Assembly (NCBI GenBank): GCA_050730875.1
Contig: JBOHNX010000001.1
Span: forward strand, 77,827-141,826
Length of the DNA: 64,000 bases
Source: Candidatus Saccharimonadales bacterium
GTDB lineage: Bacteria; Patescibacteriota; Saccharimonadia; Saccharimonadales; EFPC-124
Reading direction: 5' to 3'
The position numbers and the translations under genes are program-made. Under the pieces are notes generated by a model that was not told the DNA's origin, made no database searches, and was given only the letters and a program-made list of their open reading frames with translations. This document shows, piece after piece, positions 18,146-64,000 of this stretch; position 1 is the stretch's first letter; every line of letters begins with the position of its first letter.

Positions 18146-19906
18146 ATGCGAATTGTTAGTCGATTGAAGCTAGCGATTGTTACTTTATTGCTTTTGCTGG
18201 CTGTGCCGTTGCCGGTTGGGGCGGGGGTGCAGGATTTTAATATTCGGTCTTTTGAGGCGGATTATTATTTGAGTCGCAGCGAAAGTAAGCGGTCGCAGCT
18301 GAAAATTGTTGAAAAAATTGTTGCTGAGTTTCCGAATTTTGACCAAAACCATGGTATTGAGCGGGCGATTCCGGAAACATATGATGGCCACAGTGTCCGC
18401 TTGGGGGTTGAATCGGTCAAAAACGAGGCTGGGCGGCCGCTGGATTACTCTACCTACGGTTCCAGCGGTAACACGGTGCTCCGTATTGGCGATGCTGATA
18501 AATACGTGCGTGGCGTGCAGACTTATGTGATTACGTACAGCCTAAAAGACGTTACTAAGAATTTTACAGATCACGATGAGCTATTTTGGGATACAAACGG
18601 CACTGAATGGGCACAGTCATTTGGCAGCGTGGTTGCGCGTTTGCACATTCCGGCGGATCTTGCTGACAGATACAATGACCAACTGCGTTGTTTTGTAGGT
18701 GCGGCAGGCTCTACTGAAGCTTGTAATTATTCTGAAGAAAAACAGGGGAACGAAACGGTCGTAACGTTTAATGCTGGCCGCCAACTTAGGCCAGGTGAGA
18801 ACATGACGTTCGTGGCCGGTTTTACGACTGGTACATTCGCGCCGTACCAACCGACTGCATTCGAAAAATCCTTACCATATCTAATTGCGGCGTGGGCTGT
18901 GCTGAACTTTTTAGCGCCTATTGTTATGGTAATTTTGCTGATTGTCCTGTGGCGCCGCTATGGCCGCTCGCATAAGGGCCGCGGCGTTATTGTGCCGGAA
19001 TATTTGCCGCCAAAAGAGGCAAGTGTGCAGACGGGCGGTGCAGTGCTAAAAAAGACCGGCAAAGTTATGACCGCACAGATTATCGACCTCGCTGTGCGAC
19101 ACTACATAAAAATTTACGAAACCAAGCGCGGCAAATTGTTTAAAAAACGCTCGTATGACCTTGAACTAGTGCGCTCGCCAGATGGTTTGCGCGAAGAAGA
19201 GGTCAGCCTGGTGAAATACTTGTTTGGCAGCGAGGCGCAGGTAGGTAAGCGGGTAGATATTACCACTATTTCCGCACCGTCGGTGCAGAAGAAGATCATG
19301 GCGCTTGTGAAACGAGTCCGCAGAAGCGCCGTAAAGGCTGGCTATTTCGAAGATCGCGCGGCTGTACGCAAGAAGTACTACTGGGTTGGTGGCATTATAA
19401 TTGCGCTGGGCGTGCTGCTTTTGAGCCCTGGGCTCGTGTTCTCCGGAATTTTGATGGTTATCGTGGTATCAAAGCTGTGGCCATTGAGCGAACAGGGAGC
19501 GGCTCTGCGTGATTACTTGTACGGGCTGCGTGACTACATGTTGCTGGCTGAAGCCGAACGTCTGCGGCAATTGCAAAGCCCCGAAGGTGCGGCGAAAATG
19601 GCGGGGATTAATCCGGATGATAAATCTCAATTAGTGAAACTTTACGAACGCTTGCTACCATATGCGATTATTTTTGGCATCGAAAAGCAGTGGGCGAAGG
19701 AATTTGCGCCGCTTTACGAACAACAACCAGACTGGTATAGCGGCAATTGGTCTACGTTTAACGCGGCAGCGTTTGCATCGTCGTTCAACGGTTTTACATC
19801 TGCCAGCGCGACCGCATTTGCACCGCCAACAAATTCGTCTTCCAGCGGCTTTTCGGGCGGATCGTCCGGAGGTGGGGGAGGCGGTGGTGGCGGTGGTGGC
19901 TGGTAA
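18146..19906 (+). CDS. DUF2207-type membrane protein with poly-Gly C-terminus
   Basis: ATG 18146 gives signal peptide MRIVSRLKLAIVTLLLLLAVPLPVGA. It has a large extracytoplasmic domain, TM segments, and the tail SSSGFSGGSSGGGGGGGGGGGW characteristic of DUF2207. Confidence 0.8.
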   Translation: MRIVSRLKLAIVTLLLLLAVPLPVGAGVQDFNIRSFEADYYLSRSESKRSQLKIVEKIVAEFPNFDQNHGIERAIPETYDGHSVRLGVESVKNEAGRPLDYSTYGSSGNTVLRIGDADKYVRGVQTYVITYSLKDVTKNFTDHDELFWDTNGTEWAQSFGSVVARLHIPADLADRYNDQLRCFVGAAGSTEACNYSEEKQGNETVVTFNAGRQLRPGENMTFVAGFTTGTFAPYQPTAFEKSLPYLIAAWAVLNFLAPIVMVILLIVLWRRYGRSHKGRGVIVPEYLPPKEASVQTGGAVLKKTGKVMTAQIIDLAVRHYIKIYETKRGKLFKKRSYDLELVRSPDGLREEEVSLVKYLFGSEAQVGKRVDITTISAPSVQKKIMALVKRVRRSAVKAGYFEDRAAVRKKYYWVGGIIIALGVLLLSPGLVFSGILMVIVVSKLWPLSEQGAALRDYLYGLRDYMLLAEAERLRQLQSPEGAAKMAGINPDDKSQLVKLYERLLPYAIIFGIEKQWAKEFAPLYEQQPDWYSGNWSTFNAAAFASSFNGFTSASATAFAPPTNSSSSGFSGGSSGGGGGGGGGGGW

Positions 19907-20018
19907 GCCTTGTTATAATTTGTAGAGATGACCAGCCTACAAATACCAACCAAACGGAAGCGCGCGGAAAAAATGAACAACGCAGTTGTTCTACAAGATT
20001 TTTAAAAATCGTAAACAC

Positions 20019-20065: not shown

Positions 20066-20180
20066 CCATAAATATCATGAGTGCAGCGAGAGACCTAGCT
20101 CTGTGACCTGCCGGCAACCAGTGCTTTTTTAGCAACCAGGTGCCCCTTCTAGCCCGTGACGCGGGGAAGATATACAGATG
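20066..20180 (+). promoter_or_regulatory. SAM riboswitch, SAM-I clan (SAM-IV or SAM-I/IV-like core)
   Basis: AUAUCAUGAGUGCAGCG...CCUGCCGGCAACC...GGUGCCCC...GAUAU. P1 is ATATC (20072-76) paired with GATAT (20169-73). A P3 hairpin lies between GCAACC and GGUGCC, and a small hairpin CCCGUGACGCGGG lies before the P1 3' strand. Located directly upstream of metK. Confidence 0.75.
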
Positions 20181-46315: not shown

Positions 46316-46477
46316 GTGATCATTCCCTCGCTCTGCTTCCACCTCCAACCCCCACCTTGCCGGCTGCAAACTGCGAACCACTCGTCAGCGTAGCTACGGC
46401 TATGCTTCCTCCCGTTTCGCAGTTTTCGCTCGGCAATCTGGCGGTTTCGGTCCGAAAGAGAGCGAGGGAATGATCAC
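46316..46477. repeat. 162-nt register-symmetric long hairpin with 19-bp perfect closing stem
   Basis: GTGATCATTCCCTCGCTCT (46316-34) pairs with AGAGCGAGGGAATGATCAC (46459-77). A second stem, 46357-77 with 46416-36, is in the same register (i+j=92793) with 2-3 mismatches. The right arm contains ATG 46470. Confidence 0.65.
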
Positions 46478-57930: not shown

Positions 57931-58532
57931 TGAATGACCTTTTAAAACGCGAATGGTATCTTGACCTTGACCGTACGCTATTCGACACAGAGCGGTTCGT
58001 GCTAGAACTATTTAAAGTAGCCGGGAGAATTTATCGCGAGAAGGGCGTTCGGCGCATGCGGCTTCTAACGGACCTGCCGCACCAGATACGGTATGTGGGT
58101 GATCTAAGCTACTATCCTTTTTTTGATCATCTTGCAGAATACGGAGTCGATACACAGGAAGCTAAGAAGCTTTTATATGAAGCGCTAAAGGACAATGATT
58201 TTTTATATAAAGATGCGCACGAGTTGTTGGATTGGTTGGAATCGCACGGTATACAGCCACACATCTTAACCTTTGGCGACAAAGATTACCAAAGCTTTAA
58301 GATTTCGCTAGCGCCACGCTTGCAAAACCTGCCAGTAACAATTGTCCAGGAATCGAAAGGTGCTTTTTTGGCTCGCCAAGCCTGCGAATCGGCCATCCTG
58401 GTGGATGACAAGCTGGTTACAGATTTGCCTGAATGGTGCACCGGTGCGCTGTTAACTCGCAAAAAATCTGTCGCCGGGTATAATGGACTGGTCATTAAAA
58501 ACCTGAATGATCTAATGAGGTTTGTTGAGTGA
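57930..58532 (+). CDS. HAD-superfamily hydrolase-like protein
   Basis: Motif I-like YLDLDRTLFDT. Start overlaps the yvcK stop (TAATG) and stop overlaps the next start (GTGA). Confidence 0.65.
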   Translation: MNDLLKREWYLDLDRTLFDTERFVLELFKVAGRIYREKGVRRMRLLTDLPHQIRYVGDLSYYPFFDHLAEYGVDTQEAKKLLYEALKDNDFLYKDAHELLDWLESHGIQPHILTFGDKDYQSFKISLAPRLQNLPVTIVQESKGAFLARQACESAILVDDKLVTDLPEWCTGALLTRKKSVAGYNGLVIKNLNDLMRFVE

Positions 58533-59348
58533 ACATTTCGAAAGCATTTATTCCGATGGCGGGCTACGGCACGCGCCGTCTGCCGGTTACCAAAGCGCTA
58601 GAAAAATGTATGCTGCCAATCGGTAATCGACCAATTGTCGACTACGTAGTAGGAGACTGCTTAAAAGCGGGCGTTACCGACATTATTTTTGTGGTTGGCG
58701 AGCAGTTTAACCAGTTGCAAACGTACTATGGCCGCAATATGTTGCTCGAGGAATACTTGAAAGACAAGGGTAAAACCAAAGAGCTTGAGGAAATCATAGA
58801 CCTGTCCGAAAAGGCAACATTCCACTATGTAGTGCAAGACCAGCATCAACCATATGGCACGGCGGTGCCAGTGGCGCTTTGCGCTGACTTGGTGAACGAT
58901 GATGAACAGGTTGGTGCTCATGGGCGACGACTTTATTTACAATGCCGACGGTAGCTCTGAGGCGAAGCATCATATCGAGGCGACAGAACGCGCTGGTGGT
59001 ACTTGCGGTATGTTGGTTACCGAAGTTCCGCGTGAGCGTGTGAATCAGTATGGCGTGTTGGAGCTTGAGGACGGTTTCTTTAAGAGTATTGTTGAGAAGC
59101 CAGAGCCGTCTAAAGCGCCGAGCAACCTAATTAATATCAGCAAGTATATTTTTGATAAGACTATTTTTAGGTTAGCTGAAGAATTGGTGGCGCAGCCACG
59201 AAATGGTGAGTACCACATTACCGATGTGCTTAATACCTACGTGAGCCATGGCAATAAGATTGCGGTTGTGCCGGCGCGAGGTGAATACCTTGATGGCGGT
59301 ACGCTTGAGGGGTGGTTGCAGGCGAATAATCGGGTAGTAGGGTTGTGA
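58529..59348 (+). pseudogene. galU: UTP--glucose-1-phosphate uridylyltransferase-like (GalU/GtaB), frame broken near 58905-58912
   Basis: Frame 1 reads AFIPMAGYGTRRLPVTKALEKCMLPI...YVVQDQHQPYGTAVPV...LVNDDEQ. The conserved continuation (R)LVLMGDDFIY...GVLELEDG...VEKPEPSKAPSNLINISKYIF lies in the +1 frame (track ORFs 58529..58954 and 58899..59348). Confidence 0.75.
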
Positions 59349-59364
59349 TCTTGGCTGCTGCTTT

Positions 59365-59482
59365 TCGCCATATTCTCTAACAGAGCAAATGTGCCCGCTC
59401 CTCCACAACACTCAAAAGCCCTGAGGTACAGGGTTTCGAGTGTTGCTCCAGAGCTACGATCCTCTGTTAGAGAATATGGCGA
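59365..59482. repeat. 118-nt long hairpin with 20-21 bp perfect closing stem
   Basis: CGCCATATTCTCTAACAGAG (59366-85) pairs with CTCTGTTAGAGAATATGGCG (59462-81), plus a T-A extension. The inner stem is CAACACTC..CCCTG-AGGTA-CAGGG..GAGTGTTG (59406-45). The loops between the stems are asymmetric. Confidence 0.65.
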
Positions 59483-59548
59483 GCGCAGCTCATCGTCAGT
59501 AATGCGAAGATAGTTATTTTTCCCCAGAATTGTGGAAAAATGCAAGAA

Positions 59549-59628
59549 GTGGGTGATATTGCAATAAAAAGACTTGTCAGTGGGTAGCTGTGGGTAGTAG
59601 ACTGATGTCAGTGGGTAGTGATGGGTAA
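59549..59628 (+). promoter_or_regulatory. Phased GTGGGTAG repeat array (putative MraZ operator) overlapping a candidate mraZ promoter
   Basis: GTGGGTG at 59549. GTGGGTAG at 59580, 59590 and 59611. ATGGGTAA at 59621. Spacings are 31, 10, 21 and 10 nt. Candidate -35 TTGTCA (59574-79) and -10 TAGACT (59598-603). Confidence 0.6.
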
Positions 59629-59673
59629 GCCATCACCAAGAACAAACACCACAGTTAAAAATTCACAAACCAA

Positions 59674-60033
59674 ATGGCCACAGTAGACTACTTTGAGCGC
59701 AAGCTGGACGACAAGCGGCGGCTGACGATTCCAGCCGAGCTTCGTGACGAGTTTGCGAGCGGGGTAGTCATAACACGCGGCTTCCAGAAGTATCTCCACG
59801 TATACCCAAAACAGGTGTGGGATGAACTAATGGAGCCAGCATTGAGTGGCGACATCTTGGACGAGCGAGTAGCGGATTTAAACGTGCAATTCCGCACGGG
59901 TAAAACCGAAGCTGAGCTTGATGCCAAGCAAGGTCGAGTTAGTATCGAACAGCATCTGCTTGACTTCGCGGGCATTAGCCGCGATCTTGTAGCAGTTCGT
60001 GTTGGTCGTTACTGGCGACTCATGGCCAAATAG
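59674..60033 (+). CDS. mraZ: Division/cell-wall cluster transcriptional regulator MraZ (short form)
   Basis: Two SpoVT-AbrB-like half-motifs: LDDKRRLTIPAELRDEF and LDAKQGRVSIEQHLLDFAGI. Confidence 0.9.
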   Translation: MATVDYFERKLDDKRRLTIPAELRDEFASGVVITRGFQKYLHVYPKQVWDELMEPALSGDILDERVADLNVQFRTGKTEAELDAKQGRVSIEQHLLDFAGISRDLVAVRVGRYWRLMAK

Positions 60034-60349
60034 GGAGCTCTTTAACAATTTGACGACACCCGCTAGGTAGTAAAACGGCAAATGGTCACGTATCATACCA
60101 GATACGGGCGAGGTCAGCTACTTGGCAGTCAGTGGGTGGGCTGAGGGCATCCACCTAGTAAGCCCTTGCACCTTTCCCCTCCAAAAACACCTCCCAAAAA
60201 ACTCCACCTCACATAAGTCTCTCACTTTTAATGGATCTTTTAAGAAGTTTCTTTTACGAAACGTCTCACCACAACAACTCCATTAACTACAAAAACAAAA
60301 ACGATTCTTGAAAAAACAAAAACACTGGCTGTCAAATAGGTGACCTCGA

Positions 60350-61237
60350 ATGAATAAAACACCACAACAACTCCATCGTCCGGTTTTACTTAAGGCAGTG
60401 CTCGACGTGCTTCAACCGAAAAAAGGGGAGAAATACCTCGATTTAACGGCTGGATACGGCGGTCACGCTACTGCTGTAATCCAAGAAATTGGTGCAGCTG
60501 GTTTAGCGACGTTGGTTGATCGAGACGACATGGCAATTGCCGCCCTGCAGAAACTGCGAGCGGCTGGTGCTCATATCCTAAAATCGGATTTTGCATCGGC
60601 AGCGGAACAGTTGCACGCCAGTGGCGAGCAGTTTGACTTAATTCTCATCGATCTTGGTGTGTCGTCACCACAACTAGACAACGCCGAGCGCGGCTTCAGC
60701 TTTATGCAGGAAGGTCCGCTCGATATGCGCATGGACCCGACCACGGGCTTTAGTGCGGCCGATTTGGTCAATAAAGCATCGGTGGACGAGCTCATTCGCA
60801 TACTGCGCGAGTACGGCGAAGAGCCAAAAGCCCCAAAAATTGCTCAGGCAATTGTACGGGCAAGACCGCTCAAAACGACCGCCCAGCTCGCTGACGTTGT
60901 CGCTAAGACTCATCGTGGCGGATGGCAGAAAACCCATCCCGCAACGCGCACCTTTCAAGCACTCCGCATTGCAGTGAATGATGAGCTGCAACAAGTTAAT
61001 CGGACGCTACCGCTGTTACCAGAGTTATTGAAGCCTGGTGGGCGAGTGGCAGTAATCAGCTTCCATAGCCTGGAGGACCGTTTAGTAAAACGGTACTTTA
61101 AGGAACAGGCCGAAGCTGGCTACGAAGCAACTTTACAGCTCATTACCAAGCAGCCGATTAGCGGAGCAACCGACGACGTTTACAATCCGCGTGCACGCAG
61201 CGCAAAACTGCGAGCCGCCGTAAAAATAAACAAATAA
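60350..61237 (+). CDS. rsmH: 16S rRNA (cytosine1402-N4)-methyltransferase RsmH (MraW)
   Basis: HRPVLLKAVLDVL, DLTAGYGGHA, IDLGVSSPQLD, RGFSF, GPLDMRMD, and ISFHSLEDRLVK. Confidence 0.95.
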   Translation: MNKTPQQLHRPVLLKAVLDVLQPKKGEKYLDLTAGYGGHATAVIQEIGAAGLATLVDRDDMAIAALQKLRAAGAHILKSDFASAAEQLHASGEQFDLILIDLGVSSPQLDNAERGFSFMQEGPLDMRMDPTTGFSAADLVNKASVDELIRILREYGEEPKAPKIAQAIVRARPLKTTAQLADVVAKTHRGGWQKTHPATRTFQALRIAVNDELQQVNRTLPLLPELLKPGGRVAVISFHSLEDRLVKRYFKEQAEAGYEATLQLITKQPISGATDDVYNPRARSAKLRAAVKINK

Positions 61238-61395
61238 AGGAGTTACCATGCCACTTAAGGTAAAGGTAACTGGCATTTCTCGCACCTACCGCGTGACCGT
61301 TAATCACGTATAGGGCAAAAAATCCAAAAAAGCTGCGCAGATGTTCCACCAAACATCTGCGTGGCACCAAAATAAAAAGTAAGAGATAGCACCAC

Positions 61396-61752
61396 ATGTC
61401 TCAGACATACAACTTGAGCCTACCACGCCGAGATGCGCGCCAAAGCTGGCGACGTAATCAGAACACGGTGAAATTTCAAACCGGTATTTCGCTGGGTCCT
61501 GTTAGCCACACTGTTATTATTGCTGTGATGCTCGCGGTGCTTGGTTTGATTTATCTGACGCAAATTACCAAGACAAGCACATATGGATATCAGATAAACG
61601 AGCTCAACACTCAGAAAGAAGAGCTCCTCAGCGAAAAGCGTGATCTCGAGGTAGAAACAGCGCGTTTGCAGGCACTAGAACGCGTTCAGCAAAGCGATGT
61701 AGCGAAAGCTCTCGAAACACCAAGCCAAACCGATTACGCACGCACAAACTAG
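61396..61752 (+). CDS. FtsL-like bitopic cell-division protein
   Basis: Position between rsmH and ftsI. One TM (VIIAVMLAVLGLIYL) followed by a coiled coil (INELNTQKEELLSEKRDLEVETARLQALE). Confidence 0.65.
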   Translation: MSQTYNLSLPRRDARQSWRRNQNTVKFQTGISLGPVSHTVIIAVMLAVLGLIYLTQITKTSTYGYQINELNTQKEELLSEKRDLEVETARLQALERVQQSDVAKALETPSQTDYARTN

Positions 61753-61779
61753 GCGCCAAAGAAGCGCAGCAGAAATTTT

Positions 61780-63531
61780 ATGGAGCGATCAGCCTCACTA
61801 CCAAGCCGTAGCCGTCTCATTGTAGCCCTGATGTGTCTCATTGGGGCAATTTTTGTAGTGCGGTTATTTTACTTGCAGGTGATTCAGCACGAATATTACG
61901 AAGCTGAGGCGCTTAAAGAGCATGTCAGCAAATTTACTATCCCGGCAAAGCGCGGGCTTATTTACGCGCACGATGGCACCGACAAGTTTGCTCCGCTGGT
62001 GCTCAACGAGCCGATGTACACCGTATACGCCGATCCGCGCTATGTTAAAGATGTCGACAAAACCGTAAATGTACTTCGGCGCATTGCTGGCGGTAATGTG
62101 GTGGATAATTTTGAAAATTCTTTGCGCGATAAAGAACGTCAGTACGCGGTGCTTGCGCGCCAGGTAAACAAAACGCAGGCCGATCTTCTAGAGAAAGAGG
62201 ACTTGCCTGGTGTTGGTTTGCAAGAATCTGACAAGCGTGTGTACCCCGAGGGCCAGCTGGCAGCACATGTGCTCGGCTTTGTGAATGGGGAAGGGCAGGG
62301 GCAGTACGGCGTCGAACAGGCGCTCAACGACGAACTTTCCGGCAAACCTGGCCAGTTGAAGGCGGTAACCGATGTGTACGGCATACCGATTTCAATTGGT
62401 GACGAAAATATTCAAACACCTGCCAAACAGGGGAAGGACTTGGTGCTTTCGCTCGACCGCAACGTCCAAGCCTATGCCGAACAGGCGCTGAAAGCGGGGC
62501 TGGAACGCGCTAAGGCCACGCGAGGCAGCGTTATTGTGATGAATCCGAATAACGGCCATGTCATGGCCATGGCGAACCTGCCAACCTACAATCCTAATGA
62601 GTACAGCAAGGTGAAGGACTTCCACGCTTTCCAGAACAGGGCAATTAGCGATCCATACGAGCCAGGTTCGGTTATGAAAGCCTTCACCATGGGTACGGGC
62701 CTTAACGAGAACACTGTGCAGCCCAATTCGACCTTCAACAATACTGGGTCGACAAAAGTAAGGGATAGAACAATTAAAAACGTGCTTACTAGTCCGCAGG
62801 GGAATGTGACCATGACGCAGGTGCTCGAATATTCCTTTAACACTGGTGTCGTGCATGTGCTGCGTACGCTCGGCGGCGGTGAAATTAATCCTACGGCTAA
62901 GCAAAAGCTCTACCAGTACTTTACCGACCATTTCTTCCTTGGTCGAAAGACTGATATCTCGCTGGCGGGTGAGGCAACCGGCGAAATTGTGCCACCAGAT
63001 ACCGTCGCTGGTGGCGATGTCCGCTATGCAAACATGTCGTTTGGCCAGGGCATGACAGCTACCTTGCTGCAAGTTTCGGCTGGGCTTTCGGCGGCAGTGA
63101 ATGGCGGCACATACTACACGCCGCAGGTTGTAAGCGGTCATCTAAATGAAAAAGAGAAGTTTGTGCCCAAGCAACCCGAAATTCGCAAAGCAAATGTGCT
63201 AACAGGTGAGTCATCGCAAAAATTGCGCGGTATGCTGCACGACGCACGCAGCAGAAGTTTTCTTGGGCACGGCGACAAGCCTGGTTACACCATTGGCGGT
63301 AAAACCGGCACGGCGCAGGTATTCGACCCTAAAACGGGTACGTACAGTGAAACCGAAACCATCGGCAGTTACCTTGGTTTCGGGGGTCAAGATAAGCCGG
63401 AATATGTCATAATGGTACGAGTGGATGACGCACATATTAGCGGCTATTCAGGATCAGCCGCTGCTGCGCCAATCTTTACAGATATTTCAAACTGGATGCT
63501 CGATTATCTACAAATACAACCAAAAGGCTAA
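61780..63531 (+). CDS. ftsI: Class B penicillin-binding protein (FtsI/PBP2-type transpeptidase)
   Basis: TM anchor and PBP dimerisation domain. SVMKAF (SxxK), SFN (SxN) and GKTGTA (KTG). Confidence 0.9.
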   Translation: MERSASLPSRSRLIVALMCLIGAIFVVRLFYLQVIQHEYYEAEALKEHVSKFTIPAKRGLIYAHDGTDKFAPLVLNEPMYTVYADPRYVKDVDKTVNVLRRIAGGNVVDNFENSLRDKERQYAVLARQVNKTQADLLEKEDLPGVGLQESDKRVYPEGQLAAHVLGFVNGEGQGQYGVEQALNDELSGKPGQLKAVTDVYGIPISIGDENIQTPAKQGKDLVLSLDRNVQAYAEQALKAGLERAKATRGSVIVMNPNNGHVMAMANLPTYNPNEYSKVKDFHAFQNRAISDPYEPGSVMKAFTMGTGLNENTVQPNSTFNNTGSTKVRDRTIKNVLTSPQGNVTMTQVLEYSFNTGVVHVLRTLGGGEINPTAKQKLYQYFTDHFFLGRKTDISLAGEATGEIVPPDTVAGGDVRYANMSFGQGMTATLLQVSAGLSAAVNGGTYYTPQVVSGHLNEKEKFVPKQPEIRKANVLTGESSQKLRGMLHDARSRSFLGHGDKPGYTIGGKTGTAQVFDPKTGTYSETETIGSYLGFGGQDKPEYVIMVRVDDAHISGYSGSAAAAPIFTDISNWMLDYLQIQPKG

Positions 63532-63540
63532 AGGACGGTC

Positions 63541-64000
63541 ATGAACATCATCTCGCCTCAATTTATACAAGAACTAACCCTCATTTTTGCCTTAAGTTTT
63601 GGTGGTTTTACGCTGAGTATGTTGCTGACGCCCGTTTACACCTTTTTTGCATATCGCTATAAGTTTTGGAAGATCCAGCGTACCACTGCAACAACGGGTG
63701 AGGCAGCTCCAGTTTTTGCAAAATTACACGCTGCAAAACATCGTCGTCATATACCAACCATGGCGGGCATAATTTTTGTGGCGGTTATTGCTGTTACGAC
63801 ATTACTGTTCAACCTCGATCGGCAGCAGACATGGCTCCTGCTGGCTGCACTACTAGGTGGTGCATTTGTCGGTTTGATCGATGATATTATTAACATTCGC
63901 GGCTTAGGCGGGGGCGTTAAAGGTCTTCGCACCTCTTTGAAATTTGCCATGATCACCGCTGTTGGCGCACTTGGTGCCTGGTTCTTTTTCTACAAGCTTG
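63541..64000 (+). CDS. mraY: Phospho-N-acetylmuramoyl-pentapeptide transferase MraY, 3'-truncated by window edge
   Basis: Own translation from ATG 63541: MNIISPQFIQELTLIFALSF...HAAKHRRHIPTMAGIIFV...GAFVGLIDDIINIRG. Not in the track because there is no stop within the window. Confidence 0.9.
   Translation, partial: MNIISPQFIQELTLIFALSFGGFTLSMLLTPVYTFFAYRYKFWKIQRTTATTGEAAPVFAKLHAAKHRRHIPTMAGIIFVAVIAVTTLLFNLDRQQTWLLLAALLGGAFVGLIDDIINIRGLGGGVKGLRTSLKFAMITAVGALGAWFFFYKL

Follow-up and report, generated by a model that had tools for sequence, protein, structure and literature searches.

What occupies the 316 nt (60034-60349) that separate mraZ from rsmH in a 64,000-nucleotide stretch of a Saccharibacteria (TM7, Patescibacteria) genome, taken from contig JBOHNX010000001.1 and referred to here as the window? 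The gene calls and Pfam assignments agree on this gap, and the nearest relatives of the RsmH protein come almost entirely from metagenome-assembled genomes of Candidatus Saccharibacteria or Saccharimonadales. An earlier note on this DNA, which took the two genes to be normally adjacent, drew attention to a tandem CCUCC tract interspersed with A-runs and likened it to the anti-Shine-Dalgarno (anti-SD) sequence of 16S rRNA. Adjacency is indeed what is found in other Patescibacteria, where mraZ abuts or overlaps rsmH (L087-L089, L103, L114, L126), and all the motifs named in that note lie at the positions it gave. It missed a BoxA, a long-range helix, a pseudoknot and the spacer-wide extent of the structure: the whole mraZ-rsmH spacer is one structured RNA, on the + strand, conserved in every sampled relative. 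The reading favoured here, to which a probability of about one half is assigned, is that this RNA is a non-coding leader of rsmH and the downstream division and cell wall (dcw) genes, transcribed with the operon from the mraZ promoter and constructed in the manner of a pre-rRNA leader, and that it controls or processes the rsmH-dcw mRNA.

A scan with the RsmH protein, in which each species was represented by a single genome, recovered 80 loci. In the 72 Saccharibacteria loci with an mraZ of at least 60% identity upstream, the spacer measures 275-757 nt, with a median of 357; this range across 72 species implies that the long spacer is a trait of the lineage, not a local oddity. A covariance model built from the 5' domain of the element gave exactly one strong + strand match at each Saccharibacteria locus, that of the window spanning 60108-60222 with 99.6 bits. 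The window and genome loci together contributed 76 strong matches, to which six metagenome loci (L101, L102, L108-L111) can be added, and every one lies upstream of rsmH. Re-running the model on 79 of these sources returned 79 matches (E<=4e-5), while none was found in other Patescibacteria, in Anaerolineae or in the E. coli rrn loci. The element goes with rsmH and not with mraZ: at one locus (L073) it precedes rsmH with no mraZ present. The component features are listed in Table 1.

Table 1. Components of the mraZ-rsmH spacer element and the flanking genes, in window coordinates
Feature	Position	Strand	Remarks
BoxA-like GCTCTTTAACAATTT	60037-60051	+	4 nt past the mraZ stop
P1, 5' strand of long-range closing helix	60109-60133	+	RNAalifold, 40 species; also in the single-sequence minimum free energy (MFE) fold
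H-type pseudoknot	60133-60168	+	stem S1 60133-39/60151-57; stem S2 60142-48/60162-68
Near-invariant single-stranded G-poor block AAAAACACCUCCCAAAAAACUCCACCUCACAUAAGUCUCUCA	60183-60224	+	42 nt; two anti-SD-like motifs; column identity 90-100%, 72 species
P3, variable hairpin domain	60228-60286	+	TTAATGGA (60228-35) pairs with TCCATTAA (60279-86); MFE fold
CA-repeat blocks	60289-60323	+	ACAAAAACAAAAAC 60289-60302 and AAAAAACAAAAAC 60311-60323; ~90-100% conserved, unique in the window
P1, 3' strand	60324-60348	+	carries the rsmH Shine-Dalgarno sequence (SD) AGGTGA, 60338-60343, 6 nt before the ATG at 60350
mraZ	59674-60033	+	119 aa; upstream operon gene; Pfam PF02381 (MraZ), 4e-15
rsmH	60350-61237	+	295 aa; Pfam PF01795 (Methyltransf_5, MraW methylase), 5.5e-89; always downstream of the element

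The closing helix P1 is supported by covariation, 14 of its 22 pairs in the RNAalifold consensus showing compensatory double changes. In the window it comprises 23 bp together with two mismatches, G60117-G60340 and C60121-A60336, the first of which falls on nearly invariant alignment columns (G12 at least 90%; its partner, the G at 60340 in the window, invariant). The sequence from the window folds at -66 kcal/mol, with a z-score of -4.8. G-U or U-G is the most frequent pair at four positions; as the opposite strand would have C-A mismatches there, the RNA must be read from the + strand, like mraZ and rsmH. With some 20 bp or more flanking a structured RNA, P1 has the form of an rRNA-type leader-trailer helix.

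The same evidence bears on the possibility that the conserved feature acts at the level of DNA or on the opposite strand, as an MraZ operator, as an internal promoter or through minus-strand SDs driving micro-ORFs. A GTGGG-like sequence at 60131-40 and perfect SD-like sequences on the minus strand could be cited for this, and the earlier note had read the opposite strand of the tract as three SDs followed by tiny open reading frames (ORFs). That suggestion does not survive the comparison, given the G-U pairs of P1 and the 1-2-nt indels of the tract: compensatory changes and G-U pairs require a + strand RNA, the indels break frame, GTGGGTGGG is not conserved beyond a subclade and the spacer contains no promoter-like site. 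An explanation of this type is thus extremely improbable.

The spacer opens with a BoxA that shares a run of 15 identical nt with that of the E. coli rrnB leader, TGCTCTTTAACAATTTATCA (L127:315-329). Its segment 60037-60047, GCTCTTTAACA, fits both the rrn BoxA GCUCUUUAACAA and the published consensus GYTCTTTAANA (PMC5725501), and CTTTAACAA occurs nowhere else in the window. A BoxA-like motif is found 0-34 nt after the mraZ stop in 71/71 distinct spacers, always upstream of all structured modules, with a family consensus of G-Y-W-C-N-T-T-A-A-C-A-A-T. An exact match to the published consensus is present in 10 of the 71, and all retain at least 8 of the 13 positions; T6, T7 and A11 are invariant, and G1, C4, A8 and A9 nearly so. 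A degenerate version of the pattern matches 60 times in 27.8 kb of spacer sequence and 47 times in ~1 Mb of flanking sequence (both strands), an enrichment of ~47-fold. The motif stands on the transcribed strand, as fixed by the G-U pairs, where a long untranslated RNA begins.

In E. coli, the 16S leader-trailer helix, which is cut by RNase III (PMC10250234), has its 5' strand immediately after BoxA, and the complementary leader and trailer strands are visible in the rrn sequence used for comparison; the window itself contains no rRNA operon. The spacer likewise begins with the 15-nt identical BoxA. Next on the long untranslated RNA that it heads comes the 5' strand of a helix exceeding 20 bp, with the 3' strand hundreds of nt further on, and the RNA enclosed also carries CACCUCC. 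This order of BoxA, helix strand, structured RNA and second helix strand implies that the spacer has the architecture of a pre-rRNA leader. The two nevertheless differ in several respects: the RNA enclosed in the element is only ~190-240 nt and is not rRNA, it is located inside a protein-coding operon between mraZ and rsmH, and BoxA and the helix are 5-56 nt apart (over 100 nt if an additional module is present) as against ~3 nt in E. coli. Neither BoxB nor BoxC was identified in the element.

A further structured segment of ~95 nt, also conserved, is present in the spacers of some Saccharibacteria and not in the window (L022:2562-2671, L028:2598-2707, L041:2611-2720, L048:2597-2706 and ~14 further loci). 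It consists of GGGAAGAGCAGCC, a variable hairpin and GCGAUGAGAAAC-CCC-GAAG-GGG-UGUCUCAU, its 3' hairpin shows compensatory changes in 8/11 pairs, and it has no Rfam match. It always follows BoxA and may lie on either side of the main element, being downstream in L029.

Directly after the 5' strand of P1 comes an H-type pseudoknot, in which loop L2 is 0-4 nt long and loop L3 reads GUAA in the window and is A-rich in most relatives. Searching each sequence separately revealed complementary variants of both stems in most of 71 species, including GTGG/CCAC, GTAG/CTAC, ATGG/CCAT and ACGG/CCGT for S1 and AGGGC/GCCCT, AGAGCT/AGCTCT, GGAGA/TCTCT, TAGG/CCTA and AGGA/TCCT for S2. In a structure-blind MAFFT alignment the covariation of the pseudoknot was 0.306 against 0.206 for shuffled data (0/500 reached 0.306), with slid controls at 0.15 or less, and one pair is seen as AU, GU, CG, GC and UA. 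A MAFFT-based test of cognate against non-cognate strands was also positive; its signal is modest because S2 slips one register between species, a problem shared by the covariance model alignment. Two motifs that the earlier note had listed separately, CCACCT (60151-56) and AGTGGGTGGG (60131-40), turn out to be the two strands of S1. The latter had been described as an MraZ-box-like motif; it represents the end of P1 joined to the 5' strand of S1, covaries with CCACC and reads AAGTGG or ACGTGG in most relatives.

The hairpin domain P3 differs in size and sequence between subclades. A 17-nt sequence within its 3' part, CACCACAACAACTCCAT (60267-83), is repeated exactly inside rsmH at 60360-76 (codons 4-9, PPQQLH). 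This repeat is kept in the subclade of L001-L006, L010 and L038, and the rsmH copy is nucleotide-invariant in further species; it may reflect an alternative pairing, a shared binding site or the remnant of a duplication. The A-tract repeats seen by the earlier note near the end of the spacer are conserved too, and the AAAAACAAAAA repeats have no other occurrence in the window. In most relatives a third CA block follows P1 and reaches the rsmH start.

The block between the pseudoknot and P3 is near-invariant, and it is unpaired in both the RNAalifold consensus and the MFE fold. In the 72-spacer alignment the conserved blocks are 90-100% identical, while RsmH itself is only 48-75% identical. Variation in this block is confined to the length of an A-run (4-7) and of a CA-run (CACA, CACACA or CACACACA), with indels of 1-3 nt in the former and 2 nt in the latter. 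As indels of 1, 2 and 3 nt break any reading frame, coding is excluded, and a protein-coding small ORF was rejected as a candidate because no frame is kept among relatives. AAACTCCACCTCACA, which occurs once in the window, is present in 72/72 Saccharibacteria mraZ-rsmH spacers, and ACACCTCCCAAAA..CTCCACCTCACA in 67/72.

The composition of the tract as a whole is beyond chance. The 60-nt stretch starting at 60145-60151 contains four CC[AT]CC motifs, the densest + strand cluster of the window, and the 80 nt from 60148, with 34 C against 4 G, are more strongly skewed towards C over G than any other such stretch in it. Across relatives the tract is conserved and its motifs exceed the background frequency. 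The description of three to four CCUCC copies phased by A-runs stands in so far as the motifs exist, but the copies are not equivalent and their phasing is not fixed, as the A-runs differ in length among species (4 to 7). CCACCT at 60151-56 is paired, forming the 3' side of a pseudoknot stem, CCCCTCC (60176-82) is restricted to the subclade of the window, and only the copies at 60188-94 and 60204-10 fall in the near-invariant block. The proposed link with CCUCC motifs near 46316, 27000 and 59365 was not borne out, since none of these resembles the element and at least one, at 46340, is inside a predicted ORF.

This composition raises the possibility of a Rho-dependent attenuator, in which the C-rich, G-poor block would serve as a Rho utilisation (rut) site and read-through from mraZ into rsmH-dcw would be set by the opposing effects of Nus-BoxA antitermination and Rho loading. 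The skew and the many YC dinucleotides are of the kind expected, the tract having the composition of a rut site (at least ~70 nt of unstructured RNA with C in great excess over G), and it lies downstream of a BoxA, through which control outside rRNA has been documented for suhB and other genes (PMC5725501). Such a model leaves P1 and the pseudoknot unexplained. Rut sites, moreover, are not known to need near-100% identity over 42 nt of the kind seen here across the class, and the attenuator is considered improbable.

The suspicion that the tract functions as RNA on the mraZ-rsmH transcript is strengthened by its unpaired state, its extreme conservation and its exact match to 16S rRNA: the block contains CACCUCC, the anti-SD heptamer at E. 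coli 16S positions 1533-1539, plus CCACCUCAC. When the block and its reverse complement were aligned locally with E. coli 16S, 23S and 5S rRNA, the CACCTCC heptamer alone stood out, and there was no complementarity above chance; the best other similarity, to 16S 47-63, is non-significant (p ~0.08). Pairing in cis with the stretch of dcw transcript contained in the window, as the earlier note had imagined, is not supported either. In an RNAduplex scan of 59500-64000, taking in the mraZ, ftsL and ftsI starts, with the P1 region and its rsmH SD left out, pairing was no better than for shuffled queries, the best matches of the block, at 62273 and in the mraZ operator region (59569/59597), lying within the shuffled background. 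Between the tract and the rsmH SD only 5 bp can be drawn by eye.

A related sequence is encountered in a second group of Patescibacteria. Metagenomes scanned with RsmH from L080, which belongs to this group, yielded a set of relatives (L080-L086, L123, L124) that carry a different closed-helix element of ~130-170 nt between mraZ and rsmH (L080:2820-2965). The sequence of its closing helix differs between species while complementarity is kept, for example TCGCCGGCAAC/GTTGCCGGCGA against GGTCGGTAGCTTGGCT/AGCCAAGCTACCCGAC, and the element includes an invariant CACAAUUAGUUAUCUAG..AUUAUC. The loop of one hairpin, AACUUUU-CACCUCCUA-AAAAGUU, displays UCACCUCCU and with it the exact nonamer of the 16S 3' end; a second hairpin has a CCCC or UCCC loop, some members have an unpaired AACCUCCCAU, and the rsmH genes of this group lack an SD. 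Two elements of otherwise unrelated appearance thus share an anti-SD-identical motif within a closed helix upstream of rsmH.

Such recurrence would suit autoregulation by rRNA mimicry, in which RsmH or another 30S-binding factor, when in excess, would bind its own leader, the block imitating either the 16S 3' end (CACCUCC) or the neighbourhood of C1402 (ACACCGCCC in 16S, ACACCUCCC here). In addition to the exact anti-SD heptamer in two independent rsmH-upstream elements, there is 8/9 identity to E. coli 16S 1396-1404, and the rRNA methyltransferases ermC and ksgA provide precedents for translational autoregulation. However, the overall similarity of block and 16S fails to reach significance, with its best match away from the target site, and E. 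coli RsmH works on the assembled 30S subunit rather than on naked RNA. A G-free strand also cannot form a helical mimic of h44. Mimicry is considered quite improbable. Another candidate, the binding of GAUCACCUCC by the KH domain of Era, was rejected: era and rbfA are almost absent from Saccharimonadia (PMC12641178), so Era is unlikely to be the partner of the block.

Taking as established the fold with its strand and degree of conservation, the sequence of BoxA and the association with rsmH, we infer the following course of events for the leader RNA favoured here. The BoxA after mraZ would recruit antitermination factors of the NusB/NusE type, allowing RNA polymerase to cross 240-700 nt of untranslated, C-rich and G-poor RNA, resembling a site of Rho loading, without premature termination. 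The 5' strand of P1 may be held near until its distal partner emerges, as proposed for rRNA, whereupon the 23-bp helix, the fold of which is seen in the covariation, would close around the pseudoknot, the unpaired CCUCC/CA block and the variable hairpin. In this genome P1 would bury the rsmH ribosome-binding site, and its length suits a substrate of RNase III; both this enzyme and RsmH are kept in bacteria of the candidate phyla radiation (CPR; PMC12641178). Cleavage or opening of P1 might then separate mraZ from the downstream message and set the level of rsmH-dcw translation, with the anti-SD-like block offering a binding surface to a highly conserved factor, acting in trans, that would sense the status of the ribosome or of translation.

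Transcription from the mraZ promoter is the simplest assumption. No sigma-70-like promoter or intrinsic terminator was detected on the + strand of the spacer in a promoter and terminator scan, and in several species the distance from the mraZ stop to P1 is as short as 18-31 nt, leaving no room for a promoter there; together these observations make co-transcription with mraZ the most straightforward reading.

Four points weigh against a leader that works in this way. AGGUGA in the 3' strand of P1 is the rsmH SD, 6 nt from the ATG, in the window and ~15 relatives, but in most others the rsmH start lies at least 20-35 nt beyond it, behind a CA-rich linker without an SD, which implies that SD masking is not general. 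In one subclade this position reads AGCUGG. No partner for the block could be found in the operon (59500-64000) or in the E. coli rRNAs. Finally, a contiguous, near-invariant single strand of 42 nt is odd for a purely cis-acting leader, and a trans function of its own fits at least equally well. A switch internal to the element, between the GAGGU/AGGUG of P1 and the two CACCUC motifs, was rejected as a candidate, each pairing amounting to 5 bp and AGGUGA being replaced by AGCUGG in one subclade.

The position of the SD also bears on whether the element might be a metabolite riboswitch, responding for instance to S-adenosylmethionine (SAM) or S-adenosylhomocysteine, the cofactor and product of RsmH, with P1 sequestering the SD. 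A pseudoknot together with an SD-containing P1 in this genome would be compatible with such a device, yet the SD lies outside P1 in most species and the conserved nucleotides form a long unpaired strand instead of a junction pocket. No Rfam riboswitch matches even at E<=10, and a canonical SAM-I riboswitch, RF00162, is already present elsewhere (20069-20176, 53.4 bits), being the only Rfam match in the window. A riboswitch is accordingly very improbable. Upstream of the SAM-I riboswitch, at 19850-19910, there is a run rich in GG[AT]GG.

More serious, though still unlikely, is the possibility that a stable small RNA (sRNA) of ~190-240 nt is excised by RNase III and acts in trans through its C-rich, anti-SD-identical strands, either pairing with the G-rich SD regions of mRNAs or sequestering a protein that binds C/A-rich RNA. 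The pre-rRNA-like architecture would be well adapted to this, as would the rRNA-grade conservation of the unpaired block. The second Patescibacteria lineage, which shows UCACCUCCU and CCCC in hairpin loops within a closed helix at the same locus, points in the same direction, and the sRNAs of staphylococci provide a parallel in the C-rich unpaired motifs that they aim at SDs. A role in cis is argued by the fact that all 82 copies are strictly syntenic with rsmH and by the CA tract reaching the rsmH start, and no target rose above the shuffled background within 59500-64000. The element also lacks the promoter and terminator of its own that would mark a trans-acting C-rich sRNA: neither a sigma-70-like promoter nor an intrinsic terminator was detected in the spacer, and the mraZ stop can be as near as 18 nt to P1. 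A bolder version, that an rRNA-operon-style cassette in a cell-division operon makes a stable ~200-nt RNA with two copies of the 16S anti-SD, serving in trans as an 'anti-SD mimic' or a component of a ribonucleoprotein, is put forward as a doubtful speculation.

Comparison with known RNAs yielded no counterpart. Rfam 15 gave no match to the spacer at the gathering score in the window and 15 loci, nor at E<=10 or E<=1 in the region and 3 loci; this covers 6S RNA, transfer-messenger RNA, RNase P RNA, signal recognition particle RNA, SAM-II/V, preQ1 and all riboswitches, and ARAGORN reported nothing. The mraW RNA motif (RF01746), known from Actinomycetales upstream of mraW/rsmH (Weinberg et al. 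2010, PMC2864571), is comparable as a candidate cis-regulatory structured RNA at this place in the dcw cluster. However, no match to it was found at the gathering score or at E<=10 over 59300-61500, and the element belongs to another phylum, has no detectable similarity to that motif, is larger and contains a BoxA, a pseudoknot and a near-invariant C-rich strand.

The parallels with other systems are similarly partial. About a quarter of the reported BoxA-associated genes are translation-related (PMC5725501). In the suhB leader and the leaders of CRISPR arrays, BoxA precedes a non-rRNA transcription unit, as it does here; those BoxAs are no more than ~50-80 nt from a start codon or stand before repeat arrays, whereas in the element, which belongs to a CPR lineage, BoxA precedes a folded domain and the start codon is ~300 nt away. 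RsaE/RoxS and the hairpins of RNAIII pair their C-rich loops with Shine-Dalgarno regions. The element resembles these sRNAs in presenting several unpaired C-rich motifs (CCUCC, CCCC) on a structured scaffold, and is unlike them in having no promoter or terminator of its own, a fixed position upstream of one gene, motifs within a 42-nt near-invariant strand and no targets found in 59500-64000. As for decRNAs, these are also stable RNAs processed from the same operon, but they derive from within coding sequence in enterobacteria, whereas the element is intergenic and structurally unrelated. Literature searches found no earlier description of it. Its parts (BoxA, leader-trailer helix, H-type pseudoknot, C-rich unpaired motifs) are of known kinds; their combination, their place in the dcw operon and their lineage are new.

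Several features of the surrounding operon can also be recorded. Upstream of mraZ, five GTGGGT/TGGGT repeats at 59540-59630, with spacings of ~10, 21 and 11 bp, overlap a promoter-like TTGTCA-18-TAGACT; this region is the expected MraZ operator and contains the 80 nt with the strongest G>C skew anywhere in the window. The MraZ proteins of the window and of all the loci L001-L076 are short (~117-124 aa, against ~150 aa typically), with a single clear Pfam MraZ domain. Between a nucleotidyl-transferase gene and the mraZ promoter region, a perfect 20-bp inverted repeat, CGCCATATTCTCTAACAGAG / CTCTGTTAGAGAATATGGCG, encloses ~80 nt (59367-59486). This transferase gene (PF00483; 58529-59348) is divided between two ORFs that overlap, 58529-58954 and 58899-59348, representing a frameshift or a sequencing error. 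On the other side, rsmH is followed by an FtsL-like gene and then by a penicillin-binding protein/FtsI gene. The rsmH-ftsL spacer (61238-61395) includes a small ORF with a good SD (AAGGAG, ATG at 61249) and, at 61336-61361, an 11-bp hairpin, CGCAGATGTTC-CACC-AAACATCTGCG.

In TM7x, coding sequence makes up ~94% of the genome and no small RNAs are reported to have been validated (bioRxiv 10.1101/2022.03.25.485537). That genomes so streamlined should keep a non-coding region of 240-700 nt in every sampled species, with rRNA-grade conservation, implies an important role. We know of no other BoxA in a dcw operon. As far as the literature was searched, the element would be the first structured RNA family described for Saccharibacteria, and the covariance model can be used to annotate it. 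Through it, the logic of antitermination and processing known from ribosome synthesis would be connected with rsmH and the genes for cell division, and the anti-SD-identical core shared by two Patescibacteria lineages offers a handle on how translation and division are coordinated in minimal cells. Should the element indeed produce an anti-SD-mimic RNA, this would couple ribosome maturation, through RsmH, and translation capacity to division in ultra-small cells without Era and RbfA.

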